Origin: Squalus acanthias
Taxonomy: Eukaryota
DNA length: 64,000 bases
NCBI GenBank assembly: GCA_030390025.1
Contig: CM059431.1
Span: 109,246,001-109,310,000 of the forward strand
Reading direction: 5' to 3'
Shown piece after piece: positions 1 to 54,660 of the stretch (positions are counted from its first letter, which is position 1; each line of letters starts with the position of its first letter). The notes under the pieces were generated by a model that searched no databases, was not told the origin of the DNA, and saw nothing but the letters and a program-made list of their open reading frames with translations. The translations under genes and the position numbers were made by a program.

Positions 1-1354
1 TGTAACTCACCAATGGAAAGTTACCACAGAGCTTGTCCCAAACCACTTGGAGCACAATAAAGTGAGGATGGAAAGTTTTAGAAATGTCTGTGATAGTGCT
101 GCCACTGGAAATGTTCCAATATTCAAGAGGCTGAAAGATAGCAATAACCTATCTCACAACCCAGTTTCAGAAATGTTGCCAGGTGATGCATTTATTCTTG
201 CTGTTATCAACCCTGGCTTATATATAGCTGCCAACTCGGCCTGGCTGAGATAGCCAGAGGTTGCCTCGGCTTACAACCTTGAACAAGATCTGTGAAAACT
301 GACTGCTCTGGAAGAGGTAAACAGCACTGGTTTGACGAAGGTGAAACCGTCAACATGTGCAGGTTCCCCCTTGCTTGGAGTCCTTTTGGTGCTGATACAA
401 AATGCACAGATCTTGTTTTACTGCCATCAACCGAATCCGCTGAGGTCAGGTAGCAGGCTAATTGTATGCGGGGAAAAATAGGATAAAATTTGAAACACTG
501 CCACGTAGAGTATTACGCAAAGGGGATGCATATTGGCAATTCAGGCATGGGCGGGGCAGTACACCCTGCACAATCTCCCACCCGTTATCAATTCATAACC
601 AGAATATTGGGTGGGATGCACTGACGTCCATGTCCAACTTCTCAGTATGTGCTTCTATTGCAAAAGGGAGCACTAATTTGTAAAAAATCTATCCCTTAAC
701 TGTTAGGTACAAGTGTATGTATTACGGGGTAGTGACCGTTTGCCGATTTCTATCAAGCTCCAAGGTGTCTTCTCCTGCAATGCAATGCACCTTCTGGGGT
801 TGTAAATATGTGAAGACACTAAGCAGCCATGCTGTGGAAAGTGAATGAGTACATGAGGAGCTGTTGACCTACAACTCGACATTAACCCTAACGATAGGCA
901 GGACTCCATTGCCAAGCAAAGGATCGCATTTAAGTGTTTGGGTTGGAAAAATTAATCAGGGTCGGAACGCACATGAAGATTGTGCGTCACGCTGCCAGCT
1001 GTTTTGGTGGAGAGGGCAACAGCTGGAATACTCAAGCCTGTGTCCAGCAGCGCTGTCCACAGAAAGACAACAGTACCTGAAGTCAAACACTTTGCATGTG
1101 TGGAGCCCAATAATATCTCATCAGCATTTAGTGATGAGGTAACCACACTGGACTGTTTACAGTTGTCTGTTTTATTACATACAAGCAAGGAAATAGATAA
1201 TATAAGGGGGGGAGGGGGAGGTGATATTCAATTTGGACGGGTACACAAAACGGACGATATTGCACTTGTTATATGCCTGTTATATGCCCAGTCCAAAATT
1301 CAGTTCCATTCATGTTGGGATGGGGCGTATAACTTTTAATTTGTGCCACATTAA

Positions 1355-11907: not shown

Positions 11908-12369
11908 AAAGAAAGACTTACATTTATATAGCGCCTTTCACGACCACCGGACGTCTCAAAGCGCTTTACAGCCAATGAAGTACTTTTGGAGTGTAGTCAC
12001 TAATGTAATGTAGGAAACACGGCAGCCAATTTGCACTCAGCAAGCTCCCACAAACAGCAATGTTGATAATGACCAGATATTCTGTTTTAGTGATGTTGAT
12101 TGAGGGATAAATATTGGCCAGGACAATGGGGATAACTCCCCTGCTCTTCTTTGAAATAGGGCGATGGGATCTTTTACGTCCACCTGAGAGAGCAGACGGG
12201 GCCTCGGTTTAACGTCTCATCCAAAAGACGACATTTCCGCGCTCCCTCAGCACTGCATTGGAGTGTCAGCCTAGATTTTTGTGCTCAAGTCCCATGGAGT
12301 GGGACTATGAACCCACAATCTTCTGCCTCAGAAGCCAGTGTGCTACCAACTGAGCCACAGCTAACACTT
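11908..12369 (-). mobile_element. DeuSINE (SacSINE1-like), full length
   Basis: tRNA-like head, Deu-domain motif GATGAGACGTTAAACCGAGGCC...GTAAAAGATCCCAT, and L2-like tail. Confidence 0.85.
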
Positions 12370-12509
12370 CAGGTGACAATTACAGGCTAATAGATGTTTA
12401 CAATTAGTATTTCTTTAAATAATGATAGTTTTTGTCGTAGTATGGAACTTTAGTTTAGCTGAAAAATATGGAGGCAATAGGAGGCAAAGCTCGAGGCCAG
12501 CAAGAAAGA

Positions 12510-12750
12510 AACAGCAAACTTCCTTTTATATACTGCCCCATGACACCTCTCAAATGCCCCAAAGCACTTCACATACAATGAAGTGGAATCGCTGTCACTG
12601 TTATGCATTGTAATGTGCCAGTCATTTTGTACAAAGCAAAGTTCCATAAATAACAACGAGAGGAATAACCAGTTCTTGGTAGTAATGTTTTTGGAGGAGG
12701 AATGTTGGCCAGGACACTCGGAGAATTCCCTGTTCTTCTCTCAAAAATGG
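12510..12750 (-). mobile_element. Diverged DeuSINE, 3' part, interrupted by the MITE/satellite
   Basis: Degenerate match up to GGCCAGGACAC..CCCTGTTCTTC. The SINE resumes at 24154 (TTGGGATCTTTTAC...GTTTAATGTCTCATC). Confidence 0.7.
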
Positions 12751-12753
12751 GAA

Positions 12754-15700
12754 GGGGAGACAATTTTTACTTTCGGCACAGGCAGTAAGATGGTAGTTGC
12801 GACTAGCTGCCCATTATAAACCTCGCCCATTGTACACCTCCTCCATTGTACACCTCGCCCATTGTACACCTCGCCCATTGTACACCTCTCCCATTGTACA
12901 CCTCGCCCATTGTACACCTCTCCCATTGTACACCTCTACCCATTGTACACCTCGCCCATTGTACACCTCTCCCATTGTACACCAAGCCCATTGTACACCT
13001 CGCCCATTGTACTCCTCGCCCATTGTACACCTCTCCCATTGTACACCTCGCCCATTGTACACCTCGCCCATTGTACACCACGCCCATTGTACACCTCTCC
13101 CATTGTACTCCTCGCCCATTGTACTCCTCGTGCATTGTACACCTCACCCATTGTACACCTCGCCCATTATATACATCTCCAATTGTACTTCTCGCCAACC
13201 CTACACCTCTCCCATTGTATACCTCGCCCATTATACTTCTCGCCAACTCTACACCTCGCTCATTATGCTCCTCGCCCATTACGCTCCTCACCCATTCTAC
13301 ACCTCGCCCATTGTACACCTCCCACATTGTACAACTCGCCCATTGTACAACTCGCCCATTGTACACCTCGCCCATGAAACACATTGCCCATTATACACCT
13401 CGCCCATTATACACCTCGCCCATTATACACCTCGCCCATTGTACTCCTCGCCCATTATACACCTCGCCCATTATACACCTCGCCCATTGTACTCCTCGCC
13501 CATTATACACCTCGCCCATTATACACCTCGCCCATTATACACCTCGCCCATTATACACCTCGCCCATTGTACTCCTCGCCCATTATACACCTCGCCCATT
13601 ATACAACTCGCCCATTGTACACCTCGCCCATGAAACACATTGCCCATTATACACCTCTCCCATTGTACACCTCGCCCATTGTACTCCTCGCCCATTATAC
13701 ACCTCGCCCATTGTACACCTCGCCCATTATACACCTCGCCCATTGTACACCTCGCCCATTGTACTCCTCGCCCATTATACACCTCGTCCATTATACTCCT
13801 CGCCCATTGTACTCCTCGCCCGTTATACACCTCGCCCATTGTACTCCTCGCCCGTTATACACCTCGCCCATTGTACTCCTCGCCCGTTATACACCTCGCC
13901 CATTGTACTCCTCGCCCGTTATACACCTCGTCCATTATACTCCTCGCCCATTGTACTCCTCGCCCATCGTACACCTCGCCCATTATAAACCTCTCCCATT
14001 GTACACCTTGCCCATTATATTCCTCGCCCATTGTACACCTCCCACATTGTACAACTCGCCCATTGTACAACTCGCCCATTGTACACCTCGGCCATTATAC
14101 ACATTGCCCATTATACACCTCGCCCATTGTACACCTCGCCCATTGTACTCCTCGCCCATTGTACACCTCGCTCATCGTACACCTCGCTCATTATACACCT
14201 CGCCCATTTTACACCTCGCCCATTTTACACCTCGCCCATTGTACTACTCACCCATTACACACCTCGCCCATGGTACACCTCGCCCATTTTACACCTCGCC
14301 CATTTTACACCTCGCCCATTTTACACCTCGCCCATTTTACACCTCGTCCATTGTACACCTCGCCCATTGTACTCCTCGCCCATTGTACTCCTCGCCCATT
14401 GTACACCTCGCTCATCGTACACCTCGCTCATTATACACCTCGCCCATTTTACACCTCGCCCATTATACACCTCGCCCATTATACACCTCGCCCATTGTAC
14501 TCCTCGCCCATTGTACACCTCGCCCATTGTACTCCTCGCCCATTATACACCTCACCCATTATACACCTCGCCCATTTTACACCTCGCCCATTATACACCT
14601 CGCCCATTGTACTCCTCGCCCATTGTACTCCTCGCCCATTGTACTCCTCGCCCATTATACACCTCGCCCATTGTACTCCTCGCCCATTATACACCTCACC
14701 CATTATACACCTCGCCCATTGTACTCCTCGCCCATTGTACACCTCGCCCATTGTACTCATCGCCCATTATACTCCTCGCCCATTATACTCCTCACCCATT
14801 GTACTCCTCACCCGTTATACACCTCACCCATTGTAATCCTCGCCCATTGTACACCTCGCCCATTGTACACCTCGCCCATTAAACACCTCCCCAATTGTAC
14901 ACCTCGCCCATTATAATTCTCGCCAATTCTACACCTCGCCCATTATACACCTCTCCCATTATTCATCTCGCCCATTAGACACCTCGCCCATTATTCATCT
15001 CGCCCATTATACTCCTCGTCCATTGTACTCCTCGCCCATTGTACACCTCCCCAATTGTACACCTCGCCCATTATAATTCTCGCCAATTCTACACCTCGCC
15101 CATTATACACCTCGCACATTATTCATCTCGCCCATGATACGCCTCGCCCATTATTCATCTCGCCCATTATACTCCTCGTCCATTGTACTCCTCGCCCATT
15201 GTACACCTCGCTCATTGTACACCTCGCCAATTATACACCTCGCCCATTATTCATCTCGCCCATTATACACCTCGCCCATTGTACTCCTCGCCCATTGTAC
15301 TCCTCACCCATTGTACACCTCGCCCATTATACACCTCGTTCATTGTACACCTCGCCCATTATACACCTCACCCATTGTACTCCTCGCCCATTATACACCT
15401 CGCCCATTATACACCTCGCCCATTATACACCTCGCCCATTATACAACTCGCCCATTACACACCTCGCCCATTTTACACCGCGCTCATTGTACACCTCGCC
15501 CATTGTACACCTCGCCCATTGTACACCTCGCCCATTATACTCCTCGCCCATTGTATACCTCGCCCATTATACTCCTCGCCCATTATACACCTCGCCCATT
15601 ATACACCTCGCCCATTTTCCACCGCGCCCATCGTACTCCTCGCCCATTGTACTCCTCGCCCATTGTACACCTCGCCCATTGTACACCTCGCCCATTGTAC

Positions 15701-18700
15701 ACCTCGCCCATTGTACACCTCGCCCATTGTACTCCTCGCCCATTGTACACCTCGCTCATTATACACCTCGCCCATTAAACACCTCGCCCATTATAATTCT
15801 CGTCAATTCTACAGCTCGCCCATTATACACCTCGCCCATTGTACTCCTCGCCCATTGTACTCCTCGCCCATTGTACTCCTCGCCCATTGTACTCCTCGCC
15901 CATTGTACTCCTCGCCCACTGTACTCCTCGTCCATTGTACACCTCGCCCATTGTACACCTCGCCCATTGTACTCCTCGCCCACTGTACTCCTCGTCCATT
16001 GTACACCTCGCCCATTATACACCTCGCCCATTGTACACCTCGCCCATTGTACACCTCGCCCATTGTACACCTCGCCCATTGTACACCTCGCCCATTGTAC
16101 ACCACGCCCATTATACACCACGCCCATTATACTCCTCGTCCATTGTACTCCTCGCCCATTGTACACCTCGCTCATTGTACACCTCGCCAATTATACACCT
16201 CGCCCATTATTCATCTCGCCCATTATACACCTCGCCCATTGTACTCCTCGCCCATTGTACTCCTCACCCATTGTACACCTCGCCCATTATACACCTCGTT
16301 CATTGTACACCTCGCCCATTATACACCTCACCCATTGTACTCCTCGCCCATTATACACCTCGCCCATTATACACCTCGCCCATTATACACCTCGCCCATT
16401 ATACAACTCGCCCATTACACTCCTCGCCCATTTTACACCGCGCTCATGGTACACCTCGCCCATTGTACACCTCGCCCATTGTACACCTCGCCCATTATAC
16501 TCCTCGCCCATTGTATACCTCGCCCATTATACTCCTCGCCCATTATACACCTCGCCCATTATACACCTCGCCCATTTTCCACCGCGCCCATCGTACTCCT
16601 CGCCCATTGTACTCCTCGCCCATTGTACACCTCGCCCATTGTACACCTCGCCCATTGTACACCTCGCCCATTGTACACCTCGCCCATTGTACTCCTCGCC
16701 CATTGTACACCTCGCTCATTATACACCTCGCCCATTAAATACCTCGCCCATTAGAATTCTCGTCAATTCTACAGCTCGCCCATTATACACCTCGCCCATT
16801 GTACTCCTCGCCCATTGTACTCCTCGCCCATTGTACTCCTCGCCCATTGTACTCCTCGCCCATTGTACTCCTCGCCCACTGTACTCCTCGTCCATTGTAC
16901 ACCTCGCCCATTGTACACCTCGCCCATTGTACTCCTCGCCCACTGTACTCCTCGTCCATTGTACACCTTGCCCAATATACACCTCGCCCATTGTACACCT
17001 CGCCCATTGTACACCTCGCCCATTGTACACCTCGCCCATTGTACACCTCGCCCATTGTACACCACGCCCATTGTACACCACGCCCATTATACTCCTCGCC
17101 CATTATGCACCTCGCCCGTTGTACACCTCGCCCATTGTACACCTCGCCCATTGTACACCTCGCCCATTGTACACCACGCCCATTATACACCACGCCCATT
17201 ATACTCCTCACCCATTTTACTCCTCGCCCATTTTACTCCTCGCCCATTTTACTCCTCGCCCATTGTACTCCTCGCCCATTATACACCTCTCCCATTGTAC
17301 TCCTCGCCCATTATACACCTCGCCCATTGTACTCCTCGCCCATTGTACACCTTGCCCATTGTACACCTCGCCCATTTTACACATCGCCCATCGTACACCT
17401 CGCCCATTATTCTCCTCGCCCATTGTACACCTCGCCCATTGTACACCTCGCCCATTTTACACATCGCCCATTTTACACATCGCCCATTGTACACCTCGCC
17501 AAGTGGACACCTCGCCCATTGTACTCCTCGCCCATTGTACTCATCGCCCATTATACACCTCGCCCATTGTACATCTCGCCCATTATACACCTCACCCATT
17601 ATACACCTCGCCCATTGTACTCCTCGCCCATTATACTCCTCGCCCATTATACATCTCGCCCATTATACACCTCATCCATTATACACCTCGCCCATTGTAC
17701 TCCTCGCTCATTGTACACCTCGCCCATTGTACACCTTGCCCATTGTACACCTCGCCCATTTTACACATCGCCCATTGTACTCCTCGCCCATTTTACACCT
17801 CGCCCATCGTACACCTCGCCCATTATTCTCCTCGCCCATTGTACACCTCGCCCATTTTACACCTCGCCCATTGTACTCCTCGCCCATTATTCTCCTCGCC
17901 CATTGTACACCTCGCCCATTTTACACCTCGCCCATCGTACACCTCGCCCATTATTCTCCTCGCCCATTGTACACCTCGCCCATTTTACACCTCGCCCATC
18001 GTACACCTCGCCCATTATTCTCCTCGCCCATTGTACACCTCGCCCATTTTACACCTCGCCCATTGTACTCCTCGCCCATTATACACCTCGCCCATTGTAC
18101 ACCTCGCCCATTCTACACCTCGCTCATTGTACACCTCGCCCATTGTACTCCTCGCCCATTGTACACCTCGCCCATTATACACCTCGCCCATTCTACACCT
18201 CGCTCATTGTACACCTCGCCCATTATACACCTCGCCCATTGTACACCTCGCCCATTGTACACCTCGCCCATTATACACCTCGCCCATTATACACCACGTC
18301 CATTGTACACCACGCCCATTGTACACCTCGCCCATTGTACACCTCGCCCATTGTACACCTCGCCCATTGTACACCTCGCCCATTATTCTCCTCGCCCATT
18401 ATACAGCTCGCCCATTGTACTCCTCGCCCATTGTACACCTTACCCATTATCCTCCTCGCCCATTGTACACCTCGCTCCTTATACACCTCGCCAAGTGGAC
18501 ACCTCGCCCATTGTACTCCTCGCCCATTAAACACCTCGCCCATTGTACTCCTCGCCCATTAAACACCTCGCCCATTGTACTCCTCGCCCATTAAACACCT
18601 CGCCCATTGTACTCCTCGCCCATTATACACCTCGCCCATTTTACACCTCGCACATTTTACTCCTCGCCCATTATACACCTCGCCCATTGTACACCTCGCC

Positions 18701-21700
18701 CATTATACACCTCGCCCATTGTACTCCTCGCCCTTTATATGCCTAGCCAATTATACGCCTCGCCCATTGTACACCTCGCCCATTGTACTCCTCACCCATT
18801 ATATGCCTCGCCAATTATACACCTCGCCCATTGTACACCTCGCCCATTATACACCTCACCCATTGTACACCTCACCCATTGTACACCTCGCCCATTGTAC
18901 TCCTCGCACATTGTACTCCTCGCCCATTGTACACCTCGCCCATTATACACCTCACCCATTATACACCTCGCCCATTATACACCTCGCCCATTGTACTCCT
19001 CGCCCATTGTACTTCTCGCCCATTATACTCCTCGCCCATTATACACCTCGCACATTGTACTCCTTGCCCATTGTACTCCTCGCCCATTATACACCTCGCC
19101 CATTATACACCTCGCCCATTATACACCTCGCCCATTGTACTCCTCGCCCATTGTACTTCTCGCCCAGTATACACCTCGTCCATTACACTCCTCGCCCATT
19201 ATACACCTCGCCCATTATACACCTCGCCCATTATACACCTCGCCCATTATACACCTCGCCCATTATACACCTCGCCCATTATACACCTCGCCCATTATAC
19301 ACCTCGCCCATTATACACCTCGCCCATTATACACCTCGCCCATTATACACCTCGCCCATTATACTCCTCGTCCATTGTACTCCTCACCCATTGTACTCCT
19401 CGCCCATTATATGCCTCACCAATTATACACCTCGCCCATTGTACTCCTCGCCCATTATATGTCTCACCAGTTATACGCCTCGCCCTTTGTACATCTCGCC
19501 CATTATACACCTCACCCATTGTACACCTCGCCCATTATACACCTCGCCCATTATACACCTCGCCCATTGTACACCTCGCCCATTGTACTCCTCGCCCATT
19601 ATACACCTCGCCAATTATACACCTCACCCATTGTACTCCTCGCCCATTATACACCTCGCCCATTGTACCCATCGCCCATTCTGCTCCTCGCCCATTATAC
19701 ACCTCGCCCATTGTACACCTCGCCCATTGTACTCCTCGCACATTATACACCTCGCCCATTGTACTCCTCGCACATTATACACCTCGCCCATTGTACTCCT
19801 CGCCCATTGTACTCCTCGCCCATTGTACTCCTCGCCCGTTATACACCTCGCCCATTGTACACCTCGCCCATTGTACTCCTCGCCCATTGTACTCATCACC
19901 CATTATACTCCTCGCCCATTGTACACCTCGCCCATTGTACTCCTCGCCCATTATACACCTCGCCCATTGTACCCATCGCCCATTCTGCTCCTCGCCCATT
20001 ATACACCTCGCCCATTATACACCTCGCCCATTGTACCCATCGCCCATTATACTCCTCACCCATTATACACCTCACCCATTGTACACCTCGCCCATTGTAC
20101 ACCTCGTCCATTGTACTCCTCACTTATTGTACACCTCGCCCATTGTACACCTCGCCCATTATACACCTCGCCCATTAAACACCTCGTCCATTGTACACCT
20201 CGCTCATTGTACACCTCGCTCATTGTACACCTCGCTCATTATACACCTCACCCATTGTACACCTCGCCCATTGTACACCTCGCCCATTGTACTCCTCGCC
20301 CATTATACACCTCGCTTATTATACACCTCGCCCATTATTCACCTCGCCCTTTATATGCCTAGCCAATTATACGTCTCGCCCAGTGTACACCTCGCCCACT
20401 GTACTCCTCACCCATTGTACTCCTCGCCCATTATATGCCTCGCCAATTATACACCTCGCCCATTGTACTCCTCGCCCATTATACGTCTCACCAGTTATAC
20501 GCCTCGCCCTTTGTACACCTCGCCCATTATACACCTCACCCATTGTACACCTCGCCCATTATACACCTCGCCCATTATACACCACGTCCATTGTACACCT
20601 CGCCCATTATACACCTCGCCCATTGTACACCTCGCCCATTGTACACCTCGCCCATTGTACACCACGCCCATTATACACCTCGCCCATTGTACACCTCGCC
20701 CATTGTACACCTCGCCCATTGTACTCCTCGCCCATTGTACACCTTACCCATTATTTTCCTCGCCCATTGTACACCTCGCTCCTTATACACCTCGCCCATT
20801 TTACACCTCGCCCATTGTACTCCTCGCCCATTATACACCTCGCCCATTATACACCTCGCCCATTATACACCTCGCCCATTGTACTCCTCGCCCATTGTAC
20901 TTCTCGCCCAGTATACACTTCGCCCATTTTACACCTCGCACATTGTACTCCTTGCCCATTGTACTTCTCGCCCATTTTACACCTCGCCCATTGTACTCCT
21001 TGCCCATTGTACTCGTCGCCCATTGTACACCTCGCCCATTATACACCTCGCCCATTGTACTCCTCGCCCATTATACGTCTCACCGGTTATACGCCTCGCC
21101 CATTTTACACCTCGCACATTGTACTACTCGCCCATTATACACCTCGCCCATTATTCACCTCGCCCATTATACACCTCGCCCATTATTCACCTCGCCCATT
21201 ATACACCTCGCCCATTGTACACCTCGCCCATTGTACTTCTCGCCCAGTATACACCTCGCCCATTGTACACCTTGCCCATTGTACTCCTCGCCCATTATAC
21301 ACCTCGCCCATTATAGACCTCGCCCATTATACACCTCGCCCATTGTACTCCTCGCCCATTGTACTTCTCGCCCAGTATACACCTCGCCCATTTTACACCT
21401 CGCACATTGTACTCGTCGCCCATTGTACACTTCATCCATTGTACTCCTCGCCCATTATACACCTCGCCCATTATTCACCTCGCCCATTATACACCTCGCC
21501 CATTGTACTCCTCGCCCTTTATATGCCTAGCCAAATATACGCCTCGCCCATTGTACACCTCGCCCATTGTACTCCTCGCCCATTATACACCTCGCCCATT
21601 ATACACCTCGCCCATTATACACCTCGCCCATTATACACCTCGCCCATTATACACCTCGCCCATTATACACCTCGCCCATTATACACCTCGCCCATTATAC

Positions 21701-24153
21701 ACCTCACCCATTGTACACCTCGCCCATTATACATCTCACCCATTGTACACCTCGCCCATTGTACTCCTCGCCCATTATACACCTCGCCCATTATACACCT
21801 CGCCCATTATACACCTCACCCATTGTACACCTCGCCCATTGTACTCCTCGCCCATTATACACCTCGCTTATTATACACCTCGCCCATTATTCACCTCGCC
21901 CATTATACACCTCGCCCATTGTACTCCTCGCCCTTTATATGCCTAGCCAATTATACACCTCGTCCATTATACACCTCGCCCATTATACGCCTCGCCCAGT
22001 GTACACCTCGCCCATTATATGCCTCGCCAATTATACACCTCGCCCATTGTACTCCTCGCCCATTATATGTCTCACCAGTTATACGCCTCGCCCTTTGTAC
22101 ATCTCGCCCATTATACACCTCACCCATTGTACTCCTCTCCCATTATATGTCTCACCAGTTATACGCCTCGCCCTTTGTACATCTCGCCCATTATACACCT
22201 CACCCATTGTACACCTCGCCCATTGTACACCTCGCCCATTGTACTCCTCGCCCATTATACACCTCGCCCATTATACACCTCGCCCATTGTACTCCTCGCC
22301 CATTATACACCTCGCCCATTATACACCTCGCCCATTGTACCCATCGCCCATTCTGCTCCTCGCCCATTATACACCTCGCCCATTGTACTCCTCGCCCATT
22401 ATACTCCTCGTCCATTGTACACCTCGCCCATTGTACCCATCGCCCATTCTGCTCCTCGCCCATTATACACCTCGCCCATTGTACACCTCGCCCATTGTAC
22501 TCCTCGCCCATTATACACCTCGCCCATTATACACCTCGCCCATTGTACCCTCGCCCATTATACACCTCGCCCATTGTACCCATCGCCCATTCTGCTCCTC
22601 GCCCATTATACACCTCGCCCATTATACACCTCGCCCATTGTACCCATCGCCCATTATACTCCTCGCCCATTGTACTCCTCGCCCATTATACACCTCGTCC
22701 ATTATACACCTCGCCCATTATACACCTCTCCCATTATTCATCTCGCCCATCATACACCTCGTCCATTGTACTCCTCGCACATTGTACACCTCACTCATTG
22801 TACACCTCGCCCATTGTACACCTCGCCCATTGTACACCTCGCTCATTGTACTCGTCGCCCATTGTACACCTCGCCCATTATACACCTCGCCCATTGTACT
22901 CCTCGCCCATTGTACTCCTCGCCCATTATACACCTCGCTTATTATACACCTCGCCCATTATTCACCTCGCCCATTATACACCTCGCCCATTGTACTCCTC
23001 GCCCTTTATATGCCTAGCCAATTATACGTCTCGCCCAGTGTACACCTCGCCCATTGTACTCCTCACCCATTGTACTCCTCGCCCATTATATGATCGCCAA
23101 TTATACACCTCGCCCATTGTACTCCTCGCCCATTATACGTCTCACCAGTTATACGCCTCGCCCTTTGTACACCTCGCCCATTATACACCTCACCCATTGT
23201 ACACCTCGCCCATTATACACCTCGCCCATTATACACCTCGCCCATTGTACTCCTCGCCCATTATACACCTCGCCCATTATACACCTCGCCCATTGTACTC
23301 ATCACCCATTATACTCCTCGCCCATTGTACACCTCGCCCATTGTACTCCTCGCCCATTATACACCTCGCCCATTGTACCCATCGCCCATTCTGCTCCTCG
23401 CCCATTATACACCTCGCCCATTATACACCTCGCCTATTGTACCCATCGCCCATTATACTCCTCGCCCATTGTACACCTCGCCCATTATACACCTCGCCCA
23501 TTGTACCCATCGCCCATTATACTCCTCACCCATTATACACCTCACCCATTGTACACCTCGCCCATTGTACACCTCGCCCATTATACACCTCTCCCATTAT
23601 TCATCTCGCCCATTATACACCTCGTCCATTGTACTCCTCGCACATTGTACACCTCACTCATTGTACACCTCGCCCATTGTACACCTCGCCCATTATACAC
23701 CTCACCCATTGTACTCCTCGCCCATTGTACACCTCGCCCATTATACACCTCGCCCATTATACACCTCGTCCATTGTACACCTCGCTCATTGTACACCTCG
23801 CTCATTGTACACCTCGCTCATTGTACACCTCGCCCATTGTACACCTCGCCCATTGTACACCTCGCCCATTATTCATCTCGCCCATTATACACCTCGTCCA
23901 TTGTACTCCTCACCCATTATACACCTCGTCCATTGTACTCCTTGCCCATTATACACCTCGCCCATTGTACACCTAGCCCATTGTACACCTCGCCCATTAT
24001 ACACCTCGTCCATTATGCACCTCGCACATTATACACCTCACCTATTATACTCCATTGAAGTCAATAGGAAGGAAATTTGGCCGGGGCATATAATGGAGAG
24101 GCCTACATACAACCGCCAATTTACAGCTTGTGCCGAAAGTCCAAATTACCCCC
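12754..24153. mobile_element. Palindromic Harbinger-type MITE (~170 bp of non-array sequence) hosting an 11.2-kb satellite
   Basis: Left arm GGGG..AATTTTTACTTTCGGCACAGGCAGTAAGATGGTAGTTG..GCCCATTATA matches the reverse complement of the right arm, GGGGTAATTTGGACTTTCGGCACAAGCTGTAAATTGGCGGTTG..CTCCATTATA. Central palindrome CCATTGAAGTCAATAG at 24052-24067. Confidence 0.75.
12808..24051. repeat. 16-bp tandem satellite/minisatellite, consensus CGCCCATTRTACWCCT, ~700 units
   Basis: Directly visible 16-bp periodicity over ~11.2 kb. It generates the 16-aa repeat ORFs (LYTSPIVHLAHCTPRP and MGEVYNGRGVQWARCT). Confidence 0.98.
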
Positions 24154-24607
24154 TTGGGATCTTTTACCCGTACAGTCAGTTTAATGTCTCATCTGCAGTC
24201 AAAAACCGTCTTTCCTAATTGTTTGCATCTGATGGTAAAATTAATAAGTTGGTAATTATGGCTGCATGTGTGCAATGGGTAATTAATGAGCAAGCAGGCC
24301 GAGATTTGCCACGGCAGTAATTGTTATCAATGAGCGCAGCAGGACTTTTACAACACTGTGATAACCGGTCAGAGCATTGATATCAACTGTACTGTGATCC
24401 AGTGTAGTATTAGTCAATCCAAAGCTAAATCACAATCACACGCCACCACTAAGGACAAAATAACGCGGCACATGTACAATTACAGCACAATCAATTTGTT
24501 GCTAAGTTTTCCATGAGGAGCCAGCTGGAAAAGTCATAGCCCTTCAAAAGTTTTTTTCACCTCTTTCCACTTGGAACAAATGGTGATATTTATGCTTCAT
24601 TGGGGAA

Positions 24608-24712
24608 GTCATAGAATGAAACAGCACAGCACGAGTCCATTTGGCCCATCATACAAGGGGCCGGCTCTTTGAAAGAGCTTCCCAATTAGTCCCACTCTCC
24701 TGCTTTTTCCCC
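24608..24712 (-). mobile_element. CR1 3' terminal fragment, diverged
   Basis: CATAGAATG..ACAGCACAG..CCATTTGGCCC..CCGGCTCT resembles the CR1 3' ends at 53936 and 57783. Confidence 0.55.
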
Positions 24713-25950: not shown

Positions 25951-26397
25951 TCATCGGGACCCCACGTGCATATCATAAAAAGGATCTGGCTGGCTTTGAG
26001 CAGACAACCTTGTCACGTGCTCAGGAGGTTAAAATACAAACCTGTCAGCTTCCGGCAGCTCAAAGGCGGGTTCGTCACTTGGGCGATTATAACTGCCCAC
26101 CCGCCCGGTTTACACATAGGATTAAAATCACCCCCGAGGGCTCGGTCACAATTTACAGATTTACACCAGATATTCTCTTGAGATCACAAGTCACTCCCCT
26201 AAGTGGGCCTCACATTCCCTACAATCTGGAGTGTCACTTTTGCTGTGTAATATCTAGTTAAACAATAGCTTGATCCAGGGATGGCAACAGAGAACCATTA
26301 CTCTGTCTACCAGTTACTGAATTATAACATGTGCCACCAAACCTCCTCGCTTTATGGATGGCAGACTGAAATAGCACTTTACAAAAACATGTAAAAA

Positions 26398-30486: not shown

Positions 30487-30718
30487 TGGTCATGATGCGG
30501 AGATGCCGGTGTTGGACTGGGGTGGACAAAAATGAGAAGTCGCACAACACCAGGTTATAGTCCAACAGTTTTATTTGAAATCACAAGCTTTCGGAGCTTA
30601 CGTGGCCCCTTCCTCAGGTGAAGTCACCTGAGGAAGGGGCCACGTAAGCTCCGAAAGCTTGTGATTTCAAATAAAACTGTTGGACTATAACCTGGTGTTG
30701 TGCGACTTCTCATTTTTG
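30487..30718. mobile_element. Penelope-like element (PLE) terminal fragment, present as a perfect inverted repeat
   Basis: Perfect 96-bp arms (30526-30621 and 30624-30719) with a 2-nt loop. A 12-bp direct repeat TACACATATCAG at 30475-30486 and 30719-30730. Contains CTGAGGA..GAAAGCTT followed by AATAAA, typical of PLE pseudo-LTRs. Confidence 0.8.
30624..30664 (+). ncRNA. Minimal type I hammerhead-ribozyme-like motif (mirror copy on the minus strand at 30581-30621)
   Basis: Stem I UCAC/GUGA; core CUGAGGA plus one extra A; stem II GGGGC/GCUCC; GAAA; palindromic AAGCUU in place of helix III; putative cleavage after 30660. Confidence 0.6.
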
Positions 30719-30869
30719 TACACATATCAGAGTTGTGGAGTTAAAGACGTGAAGAGATGTTGCACAACCATTTGTTTTGTCAAAAAATACTTCATTTAGC
30801 AACAGACAGTATTCAACCACTGTGGATGTGGACAACAAAATTAAATGTGACTCAAAATTACCCTTGAAA

Positions 30870-32697: not shown

Positions 32698-32823
32698 TGT
32701 CGGTCCCGCACAGCTCGGGACCGGCTTTTTCGATGTTAAATTTCGTGCATGCGCAAAGCTGTGAATGGGCCGTGCAGCCCCTTAAAGGGACCGGGCTTCC
32801 CCCCAAAAGTAGGGGAAACATTG
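32698..32823 (+). mobile_element. hAT MITE family A, left end truncated
   Basis: Ends in GGGGAAACATTG. Internal homology to 59820-59979. Confidence 0.65.
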
Positions 32824-32882
32824 ATTATTACCCCCTCAGTACAGAATTATTAATCCGTCTTCCTATAGTACAGGATTATTAC

Positions 32883-33008
32883 CTATGTTCCCTTTAAGCT
32901 GCACGGCCTCTGGGAACTTCCCGTGCAGCCAGCTCGCAATCTTTTCAATGCAAAAAAAAAACCTTAAAGGGGCCGCGCACCCAAAAAAAAAAATTAGAGG
33001 CAGCATTG
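32883..33008 (+). mobile_element. hAT MITE family A
   Basis: Ends CTATGTTCCC and GAGGCAGCATTG, with a perfect 8-bp TSD ATTATTAC (32875-32882, 33009-33016). Confidence 0.8.
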
Positions 33009-37404: not shown

Positions 37405-37579
37405 GGGATGGATCTTCGATTTGCCGCCCGGGTTTGCAGATCGACTGCCCAAAATAGAAGCTGCCCAACTTTTATTTCTATTTACTTCAGTGGACATGGA
37501 AACCAGGGCAGATTCAGTAATGAGCAGCCTATCCACAACCACAGTAATGTGCCCGGGCGACAGGTTGAAAATTTACCCC
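37405..37579. mobile_element. Short palindromic MITE remnant
   Basis: GGGATGGATCTTCGATTTGCCGCCCGGG matches the reverse complement of the right end, GGGGTAAATTTTCAACCTGTCGCCCGGG. Confidence 0.5.
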
Positions 37580-37981: not shown

Positions 37982-38898
37982 GGAACATGCATGCTATGAC
38001 ACGTGCATACTATGACATGTGCATGCTATGACACATGCATGCTATGACACGTGCATACTATGACATGTGCATGCTATGATACATGCATGCTATGGAACTT
38101 GCATGCTATGACACATGCATGCTATGATATATGCATACTATGGCACTTACATGCTATGACGCATGCATGCTATGACACATGCATGCTATGATACATGCAT
38201 ACTATGGCACTTACATGCTATGACACGTGCATACTATGGCACTTGCATGATGTGGCACATGCATGCTATGACATGTGCATACTATGACACATCCATGCTA
38301 TGACATGTGCATACTATGACACATGCATACTATGACACTTGCATGCTATGACACTTGCATACTATGACACTTGCATGCTATGGCACGTGCATGCTATGGC
38401 ACTTGCATGCTATGACACGTGCATGCTATGACACTTGCATGCTATGACACGTGCATGCTATGAAACTTGCATGCTATGGCACGTGCATGCTATGACACGT
38501 GCATGCTATGAAACTTGCATGCTATGGCACGTGCATGCTACGGCACGTGCATGCTATGACACATGCATACTATGGCACTTGCATACTATGGCACTTACAT
38601 GCTATGACACATGCATACTATGGCACTTGCATACTATGGCACTTACATGCTATGACACATGCATACTATGGCACTTGCATACTATGACACTTGCATGCTA
38701 TGGCACGTGCATGCTATGGCACTTGCATGCTATGGCACTTGCATACTATGACACTTGCATGCTATGACACGTGCATGCTATGACACTTGCATGCTATGGC
38801 ACGTGCATGCTATGGCACTTGCATGCTATGGCACTTGCATGCTATGACACATGCATACTATGGGACATGCATACTATGACACGTGCATGCTATGGTAC
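37982..38898. repeat. 16-bp tandem minisatellite, consensus TGCATRCTATGRCAC(T/G/A), ~57 units
   Basis: Directly visible 16-bp periodicity. Confidence 0.95.
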
Positions 38899-51223: not shown

Positions 51224-52140
51224 GGCACCAGGCACAGTTCACACACGACAATGAATATTATATCACCTGCAGCACAGATATTTGCAGTGTGGATTCAGGG
51301 TTATTCTCTTTACTTTTAAGGTCAGATTTTTTTTTGAGCAAGTCTGAATTTGGATCAAGATGCGAAGACACCACCACTCATGTCATTACTAACCTGGCAG
51401 ACAGCTAGAGAGTCCAGCAGATGAGCGAGCCCCTTTGCTGGTTTTAGCATTCTGGCGTGCATCTTTTCCTCTGGTCACTAATATGAGAATGTCAGTGTGA
51501 GCAGAAAACAGGTTCTCCCATTTTATACTTGCACCTACTTCTTCACTCCCTTTAGTGACTGGAGGAAAATATACCCATCTTTCTGTTACTTTCCTTTTAG
51601 CACAAAGTGAATAATGAAACAGCATCACTGAAATGTTCTGGATTCCACTCTCAATAACAGTGATCATCACTCACGCAAGACTCCTCGACTAACCCACACA
51701 CTCACAGCTTGCGCTTAACATGTATGAAAATAAAATAACCCACTTTAAGAAAAAGTGTCAAATCACCTTTCAATCATAACCCCTCCATCCTATCAGAGAG
51801 CAGAGATGCCTGGACTTAGCAAAACACTTTAAAGTGAGATTTCAGAAGTGGTGCAAAACACTGCAGAATTCTTAGGAGAGGCCACGACATAAGACTACCT
51901 ACAATTCCGTACTAATTAGGATTATTTGATTTGAACTCAAAGAGGCTTCCTACACAGCTAATCTATAAATGGAAATATTTCATTGATGAAGTCGGTGGGG
52001 GGTTGGGATTAAAGCACCTGGGGTGGGGGGGGGGGGGGGGGAGATTTCTTTGTGTGGTATATGTAACAAAATCATAAGCCAATTTATGAAGAACTGGTTT
52101 ACAATTTTGCTAGCACAGCACAAAGAGGAAATGTTCCTTT

Positions 52141-52323
52141 GTTATCAATGGTCCCTCATCATCAATGTTGGCTCGTTATCAATGTTGGCTCATTATCAAT
52201 GTTGCCTCGTTATCAATGATCCCTCGTTATTAATGATCCCACGTTATCAATGTTCCCTCGTTATTAATGATCCCACGTTATCAATGTTCCCTCGTTATCA
52301 ATGCTGCCTCGTTATCAATGTTG
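52141..52323. repeat. 17-bp tandem minisatellite, consensus GTTATCAATGTTCCCTC, ~11 units
   Basis: Directly visible. Confidence 0.9.
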
Positions 52324-53274: not shown

Positions 53275-54660
53275 AAGATGAGATTAGAAATGATATAACT
53301 GCATTGAAAATAAAAAGAGGAGAAATATTAAATAAACACAGGATAAAAACCCTGGTCCGGATAGATTGCATCCGTGCATTTTAAAAGAATCTAGGGAAGA
53401 GACAGCAGAGGAATTATTACACATACTCAATAATTTGCTCGAAAAATGTCTAGTGCCAGAGGATTGGTGGATAGCTAACGTTATATCTATATTCAGAGTG
53501 GCAGAAGGTGGGAAGTGGTGACCCACAAGGATCAGTGCTGGGACCACTGTTGTTTACAATTGGTATTAACGATTTAGACTTTGGAATCAAAAACACAATT
53601 TCTAAATTTGCGGACAGCACCAAATTGGGACGGATAGTCAACATTGAGGGGGACTACAACAAATTACAAGATGACATTAATAAACTTGAAGAATGGGCAT
53701 ATAATTGTCAAATTAATTTCAACATAGATAAGTGTGAGGCATTACATTTTGGTAGGAAAAATAAGGCAGTCAAATATTACTTGGAAAATAAGAATCTAAA
53801 TGGGATAGAGGAGCAAAGAGAGTACAAATACACAAATCACTAAAAGAAGCGACGCACTTTTAAAGCCATTAAAAAAAGCAAACCAAGCACTAGGTTTATT
53901 TCTAGAGGGGATAGAATTAAAAGGTAGAGAAGTTAGAATCATAGAATGGTTATAGCACAGAAGGAGGCCATTCGACCTGTCGAGCCTGTGCCGGCTCTCT
54001 GCAAGAGTACTTCAGCAAGTCCCACACACCCGCCCTTTCCCCGTAGCCCTGCAAATTTTTTTCCTGCAGTTATGCTAAACTTGTATCGAACCTTGGTTAG
54101 ACCACACTTGGAGTACTATGTACAGTTCTGGTCGCCATATTATAAAAAGGATATGAAGGCACTGGAGAGGGTTCAAAAATGATTTACAAGGATGATACCA
54201 GAAATGCAAAGTTATACCAATCAGGAAAGGATGAACAGATCGGGTCTCTTTTCTCTTGAAAAGAGAATGCTGAGGGGTGACCAAGTAGAGATCTTTAAAG
54301 TTATGAGAGGTTTTGATAGAGTGGATACAGAGAGAGTGTTTCCACTTGTTGGGAAAAGCAAAACTAGAGGCCATCAATATAAGATAGTCACCAAGAAATC
54401 TAATAGGGAATTCAGAAGAAAATTGTTTACCCAGAGAGTGGTGAGATTGTGGAACTCGCTACCACAGGGAGTAGTTGAAGTGAATAGCATAGATGAATTT
54501 AAGGGAAAGCTCGATAAGCATATGAGGGAGAAGGGAATAGAGGGTTATGCTGATAAAGTGAAATGAGGAAGGATGGTAGGAGGCTTGAGTGGAGCATAAG
54601 CGCCGGCATGGACTGGTTGGGCCTGAATGGCCTATTTCTGTGCTGTATATTCTATGTAAA
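53275..54660 (+). mobile_element. CR1 LINE ORF2 RT plus 3' end, decayed and internally deleted
   Basis: PGPDRLHPCILKE; SGDPQGSVLGPLLFTIGINDLD...KFADSTKLG (RT core); [34 protein letters not shown]1 tail. Confidence 0.92.
53936..54067 (-). mobile_element. CR1 3' terminal fragment inserted antisense into the older CR1
   Basis: Homologous to 57783-57910. Flanked by AGTTA direct repeats (53931-53935, 54068-54072). Confidence 0.8.

Follow-up and report, generated by a model that had tools for sequence, protein, structure and literature searches.

Tandem repeats that arise inside transposable elements are already a known kind: 7,276 have been counted in human DNA, with hotspots within the elements, and only about 6% of the element-derived human cases could be assigned there to a proposed mechanism (PMC3389668). 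In Xenopus, the tandem repeat Xstir has been derived from Xmix, a MITE, or miniature inverted-repeat transposable element (Hikosaka and Kawahara 2004, as described in PMC6004289 and PMC12628747), and miDNA4 has been reported as a satellite MITE of Xenopus tropicalis (Scalvenzi and Pollet 2014, as described in PMC12628747 and PMC9659126). Here we analysed 64,000 nucleotides of Squalus acanthias DNA (assembly GCA_030390025.1, contig CM059431.1, forward-strand positions 109,246,001 to 109,310,000; hereafter the window), in which a long array of 16-bp units lies within a short palindromic element that itself interrupts a short interspersed nuclear element (SINE). The nest is real, and we consider, with a probability of roughly 0.7, that the array grew from one arm of the palindromic element through slippage between short direct repeats. 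The origin of minisatellites is hard to observe, the parent usually having been erased; at this locus the parent, the seed repeat, the incomplete end unit, the inverted twin of the unit and unexpanded relatives are all readable, and it offers a clean example of an accepted model.

As in Xmix/Xstir, an internal segment of a vertebrate MITE has been amplified, and in the published descriptions of that system plain, composite and pure-array forms coexist. Unlike the focal element, Xmix belongs to the T2/Kolobok MITEs and has TTAA as its target. Xstir is proposed to have arisen when two adjacent elements were joined, while at the focal locus the period appears to come from a short direct repeat within a single arm. 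Like the focal case, miDNA4 is described as having its internal monomer, with short direct repeats on either side, present once or in arrays that vary in length, the long ones becoming satellite; it differs as a MITE of Tc1/mariner type whose monomer is considered to have been acquired by capture, whereas the focal monomer is part of a palindromic arm and has an inverted twin in the other arm. Human minisatellites derived from Alu and other transposable elements, as treated in the Haber-Louis and Taylor-Breden models, share with this locus the parental direct repeats (5-10 bp), the incomplete terminal unit and the consensus hotspots (PMC3389668, PMC6947457, as far as these sources describe them). 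In contrast to those cases, the focal parent is a palindromic DNA element in a SINE, and about 700 copies is very long for a 16-bp unit.

The nest consists of the following features, given with window coordinates and strand.

12502-12752, minus strand: 3' part (tail and body) of an old SINE of transfer RNA (tRNA) type, interrupted by the element; 75% identity to the majority sequence of the SINEs in the window.
12748-12752, plus strand: TGGGA, left copy of a possible target duplication (direct reading).
12753-12809, plus strand: outer left arm of the element (inverted match to the right arm).
12809-24050, plus strand: 16-bp tandem array, about 703 copies (tandem-repeat detection and unit parsing).
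24041-24051, plus strand: incomplete terminal unit, equivalent to the native linker, with the second copy of the seed direct repeat and an AT-rich spacer (by-eye comparison with the loose-end consensus described below and the right arm).
24052-24067, no strand assigned: central palindrome (hairpin fold; contigs from other loci pile up on 24050-24096).
24068-24154, minus strand: right arm, unexpanded, with the inverted counterpart of the unit at 24082-24097 (arm alignment; orthologous contigs from organisms C and D span it as well).
24155-24159, plus strand: TGGGA, right copy of the possible target duplication, being the first bases of the resumed SINE (direct reading).
24155-24196, minus strand: continuation of the SINE, headless and shortened by an internal deletion of 18 bp (score 41, best of 2000 shuffles 35.1).

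An earlier note, made from the letters alone, had described an 11.2-kb array amplified about 700-fold and bracketed by inverted arms, and both parts of this description were borne out. The array has a period of 16 and 702.7 copies over about 11.2 kb, and positions 12753-12829 align with the reverse complement of 24078-24154 at 56 identities, 19 mismatches and 4 gap positions, the arms being about 75% alike. This match had a local score of 68, the top score among 500 shuffles being 43; in a second test it scored 78, and the best of another 500 shuffles 53.5. When the array is collapsed by coordinates the element measures 187 bp, and its predicted fold is a single long hairpin of -36.0 kcal/mol, compared with -19.2 +/- 3.1 kcal/mol for 100 shuffles (z -5.4). 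The first array unit (12810-12825) stands in the place of the single unit of an unexpanded element. At the other end, the palindrome at which the array was said to stop is indeed present, but the stop is not abrupt, since the preceding 11 bases are the linker read as an incomplete last unit, about 2 nt shorter by eye than the linker of the family. With arms 25% apart and a length of 11.4 kb, the element is most likely immobile now.

Parsing of the array yielded 702 units in 136 variants, 699 of them exactly 16 bp long, with a divergence of 9% from the majority unit and 14% between pairs. The clearest block duplication lies near 15161, where a 960-bp period has a best 320-bp window with 99.7% identity; beyond scattered duplications of this kind no higher-order repeat was found in the array, and the order of variants along it is non-periodic (the highest autocorrelation at unit level is 0.15, the baseline being 0.08). 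It could be asked whether a short array was over-expanded during assembly, or two loci were joined via the repeat, as no spanning read or contig was seen and the contigs stop inside units. However, the many variants in non-periodic order and a longest exact repeat of only 300 bp argue against such an artefact, and a misjoin would not yield arms and SINE halves that fit each other from the two sides. We regard this explanation as hardly credible.

For the SINE we used as reference the majority sequence of 11 copies within the window, which are 83-96% identical to it. The left part aligns to majority positions 18-286 (183 identities, 62 mismatches) and the right piece, of about 42 bp, to positions 281-348. 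The SINE had been said to stop and resume around the element, and the two halves are contiguous on the reference and on the same strand; the resumed piece is nevertheless short, deleted and headless. Because it reaches only 75% identity, against 83-96% for the others, the interrupted copy is old or comes from an older subfamily. Extra contig depth over 24155-24196 comes from other SINE contigs, which fall there too. The SINE is of tRNA type, and A- and B-box-like motifs are found on the minus strand of the majority sequence, the interrupted copy itself having no tRNA head. Rfam gave 0 matches and ARAGORN nothing in the window. The Deu-domain label that the SINE had been given is putative. At least 11 copies of its family occur in the 64 kb (for example 12004-12368), several of them as inverted pairs about 1 kb apart. 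SacSINE1, described as a Deu-domain tRNA SINE of sharks, rays and chimaeras with copies of up to about 460 bp (PMC5499810), is similar in being high-copy, of tRNA type and of like size, the comparison being by description only.

To place the palindromic element in a wider context, contigs from four public runs with three species labels (organism A with two samples, organisms C and D with one sample apiece) were aligned at 80% likeness to the right flank only (24010-24609). The runs were chosen from 10 listed as containing the right flank, X6 and X7 being left out because their shares were small; run X1 is near-identical to the window and could be its source. The runs contributed 72, 70, 77 and 69 contigs, many of which fit only 24050-24096, the centre and inner right arm, and at least 26, 30, 29 and 27, respectively, end loose at 24050-24052. 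To the left, the main consensus of the loose ends comprises one 16-nt unit, then, at a distance of 16 nt, a second repeat of GCCC or ACCC type, and finally an AT-rich linker that leads up to the centre; to the right, the loose ends are non-tandem arm sequence similar to the outer arm of the focal copy. Among the matches listed, these ends are internal to contigs measuring 0.5-3.7 kb, which do not reach the units of the array. As they show one unit only and do not run onto array units, we read them as unexpanded copies at other loci, and on sequence grounds the element belongs to a dispersed multi-copy family. The earlier note had staked its reading on a dispersed family matching the joined arms and on the presence of the unit in the consensus of the element; arm and centre were matched both in the contigs and in a relative within the window, and the unit is present in the loose-end consensus. 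With the SINE halves contiguous as well, none of the three refuting outcomes that it named was observed.

Two relatives of the element were found by scanning the window.

37405-37579, no strand assigned: unexpanded, complete relative of 175 bp, the best match of the window-wide scan, with similar ends and centre.
1214-1340, plus strand: partial, more distant relative (left arm and centre), with a score of 64.5 that is weak alone; kept since ends, unit motif and centre line up.

The complete relative scored 90, compared with a mean of 37.7 (sd 7.6) and a best of 57.5 in 300 shuffles; its left arm contains an exact 8-bp direct repeat 16 nt apart, and its flanking repeat is at most 2 bp. Scan matches near 52200, 33600 and 6700 (scores 61.5-63.5) were judged on inspection to be chance. 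Within the partial relative, 11 bp covering the corresponding arm motif occur as two exact tandem copies at 1267-1288, possibly an incipient repeat of another period. Two degenerate family patterns gave 0 matches in metagenome contigs, and one of them 0 in viral contigs, as expected for animal DNA. No description of the focal element or the 16-bp unit was found in the literature searched, a search that did not cover Repbase, Dfam, subscription papers or supplements, so the family may be catalogued there.

The relatives allow the ancestor of the array unit to be approached. The inverted twin, put forward as the ancestral monomer, is present in the right arm but matches the majority unit at 11 of 16 positions and the first unit at 12 of 16, while between the consensus unit of the family and the most frequent unit of the array 14, 14, 14 and 13 of 16 positions agree in the four runs (by eye). 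Since 13-14 exceeds 11-12 of 16, the family consensus is the better ancestor and the twin a decayed record. Position 14 of the unit is T in 683 of 699 array units and C in none, whereas C stands there in the right arm and in each of the four main consensuses; this near fixation of T against the C of family and right arm points to a single founder unit or a complete sweep.

We propose the following order of events. A fully palindromic, non-coding family element of about 190 bp, by its anatomy a putative non-autonomous DNA transposon, interrupted an old SINE copy. In the family each arm bears, beside the centre, a short imperfect direct repeat (GCCC plus 1-4 bases) whose copies stand exactly 16 nt apart. 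Between the repeats of the left arm, slippage or unequal exchange may then have duplicated the 16 intervening bases, an incomplete unit staying beside the centre, and further slippage, unequal crossing-over and gene conversion would have led to about 700 reshuffled units. Tandem units were in place at the site before organism A split from C, and probably from D, with block duplications apparently continuing. The short direct repeat 16 nt apart recurs in the loose-end consensuses of all four runs, and the 16-bp period is most likely set by this repeat of the element itself. The two accepted models of how minisatellites are born, through slippage or unequal exchange, are recognised by short flanking direct repeats together with a terminal unit that is incomplete, in the descriptions given in PMC3389668 and PMC6947457; at the focal locus the unit is homologous to a single-copy segment of the parent, the parent has a direct repeat at the unit period, and the terminal unit is incomplete. 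The array was likely born at this locus, the alternative being that the inserted copy already had a few units.

Several observations weigh against this history. The seed repeat in the focal right arm is decayed, lag 16 not being one of the four best lags for exact runs, and the agreement of the main loose-end consensus is low (0.54-0.57, over 30 letters only), which suggests that the family is old or has several subfamilies. No empty-site or element-only allele of the locus occurred among the contigs, which cover the right flank only and drop rare variants, and for this reason the order of events is one that we infer. Sister arrays of the unit exist, so the copy could have arrived with a few units. 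The ends of the element could not be assigned a target duplication of any known type, and the 59 window frames scanned with Pfam contained no transposase, their 1 match being to a reverse transcriptase. The array length is that of the assembly.

The contigs also bear on the age of the array. An orthologous contig of organism C covers 24010-24605 with 38 differing letters and 11 gaps, and one of organism D covers 24018-24605 with 35 differing letters and 11 gaps; both begin inside units and run from unique flank through right arm and centre into the units, the C contig covering more than a single unit plus linker and the D contig barely. From this comparison, tandem units at the site predate the split of organism A from C, and probably from D, at about 6% divergence. 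In addition, at least 4, 3 and 6 contigs of runs X5, X8 and X9 continue beyond 24050 with further in-phase units, their consensus having ACCCC; X1 has no ACCCC-type tandem-unit contig among the matches listed. As ACCCC has 0 occurrences within the focal array, these contigs show that there are sister arrays of the 16-bp unit, and that organism A has them as well, barring a strongly divergent allele in X5. In C and in D alike, a 1.7-kb contig matches the last unit, linker and centre (24029-24075) near its start and then diverges, and is a candidate second locus with units abutting the centre.

Such in-phase contigs, present among the matches listed in 3 of the 4 runs, would be expected if the first duplication were ancestral, a short-array subfamily having transposed to several sites and only the lengthening having taken place here, and the spread of array-bearing elements by transposition has been described, as proposed for miDNA4 and for LTR12 tandem repeats in the accounts of PMC12628747 and PMC3389668. 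However, the contigs in question keep the ancestral C, which the focal array lacks, and most family contigs show a single unit; we think it unlikely that the array was carried in. The sister arrays would also suit the pasting of an existing satellite of the 16-bp unit into the homologous motif of the element, by gene conversion or ectopic recombination. Both ends of the array are nevertheless in register with the native arm and linker, no donor is needed, and the fixed T of the array is absent from the sister consensuses among the matches listed, which leaves such an import very improbable. We retain growth within the left arm of the palindromic element. It is tempting to speculate that the element acts as a repeat nursery, its built-in direct repeat at a 16-nt spacing having seeded many independent 16-bp arrays across the genomes of the lineage, although this extension is tentative and the odds are somewhat against it. 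Each array may then have its own founder mutations, with an unexpanded inverted twin recording the ancestral monomer. If many independent births from one motif did occur, the rates and polarity of expansion would become measurable in a replicated, dated series from a single copy to more than 10 kb.

The element had also been classed as a Harbinger-type MITE of about 190 bp. Its size and MITE anatomy agree with this: the element is short and non-coding (187 bp collapsed, 175 bp in the complete relative), 56 of 75 aligned bases are complementary from the very ends, and the family is dispersed and multi-copy (at least 26-30 loose-ended contigs per run in 4 of 4 runs, and one complete relative in the window). 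The name Harbinger fares less well. A TWA target duplication defines PIF/Harbinger (PMC4482050 section 5), and unlike PIF/Harbinger MITEs the focal element has none, the flanking triplets being GAA/TTG or GGG/GGG depending on the choice of ends; decay in an old copy is possible. Nor does any reading of the ends match the other PHIS targets, as given in PMC4482050. The insertion scar can be read as a 5-bp TGGGA direct repeat, as a duplication of its central 3 bp if the element is drawn 1 bp wider, or as no duplication at all; SINE alignments without and with the duplication score about the same (96.0 vs 93.8), and the bases outside the terminal G-run vary among the relatives in the window. Inside the 5-bp direct repeat the ends of the element read AGGGG and CCCCT. 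In every reading both ends start with A or G, which fits PIF/Harbinger but weakly, as ends of ISL2EU, Pangu, Spy and T2/Kolobok do likewise. In the 3-bp reading, six bases on each side (12743-12748 and 24159-24164) are complementary at 5 of 6 positions, a comparison made by eye, post hoc and at one site; vertebrate Harbingers are described as having an extended, near-symmetric target preference of 15 bp (PMC2836001). The 342-bp Harbinger-N12A_XT, compared from its description in PMC12676858 only, is like the focal element short, non-coding and palindromic, with ends that start with a purine.

Two other classes were considered and rejected. T2-MITE/Kolobok elements are described with a TTAA target and AGGRR ends (PMC6004289); the focal ends allow the reading AGGGG, but TTAA stands on neither side. 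Spy is described as inserting between AAA and TTT without duplication and as reported from invertebrates (PMC4122938); here the reading without duplication gives GAA/TTG, 2 of 3 bases on each side, and the SINE majority sequence has no such site at that point. No autonomous partner (DDE transposase or Myb/SANT protein) was present in the window frames scanned, and according to the account in PMC9179366 Harbingers were not detected in the one cartilaginous fish examined. Harbinger is our best guess for the element, with a chance of about one in two: ends and size fit, and the 3-bp reading would give a near-symmetric 15-bp site.

In all likelihood the array is neutral and non-coding, and no function is implied for it. 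Its plus-strand frames are poor in stops, the longest reaching 1265 codons; we discounted them as coding because the composition of the unit explains the paucity of stops. For a six-unit stretch no base-paired fold was predicted on either strand. The array has a strong strand bias, with a GC skew of about -0.63 and a GGG run every 16 nt on the minus strand, a pattern reminiscent of the G-rich core of classical human minisatellites. Pfam revealed no host gene in the 59 of 79 listed window frames scanned, most of the left-out frames overlapping SINEs or simple repeats.

The window contains further repeats. A preprint reports an abundance of simple tandem repeats in the genomes of some sharks and rays (10.1101/2025.06.08.657570), and two more short-period arrays occur here: a second 16-bp array at 37988-38894 (56.7 copies), with an unrelated unit and about 400 bp from the complete relative at 37405-37579, and a 17-bp array at 52130-52322 (11.4 copies). 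Neither has inverted flanks, 320 and 84 of 500 shuffles, respectively, reaching their scores, and both were ruled out as further cases. A short element on the minus strand at 26040-26145 has a G-run end and shares only its terminus with the focal element, and a 156-bp stretch at 32767-32922 likewise has inverted, G-run ends. At 30522-30723 there is a near-perfect 202-bp palindrome, with two 100-bp arms 99% complementary and 2 nt apart, apparently either another repeat that was recently duplicated by fold-back or a fold-back made in assembly. Finally, 53475-53840 encodes a reverse-transcriptase fragment (RVT_1, E 2.7e-08), probably from a decayed long interspersed nuclear element.

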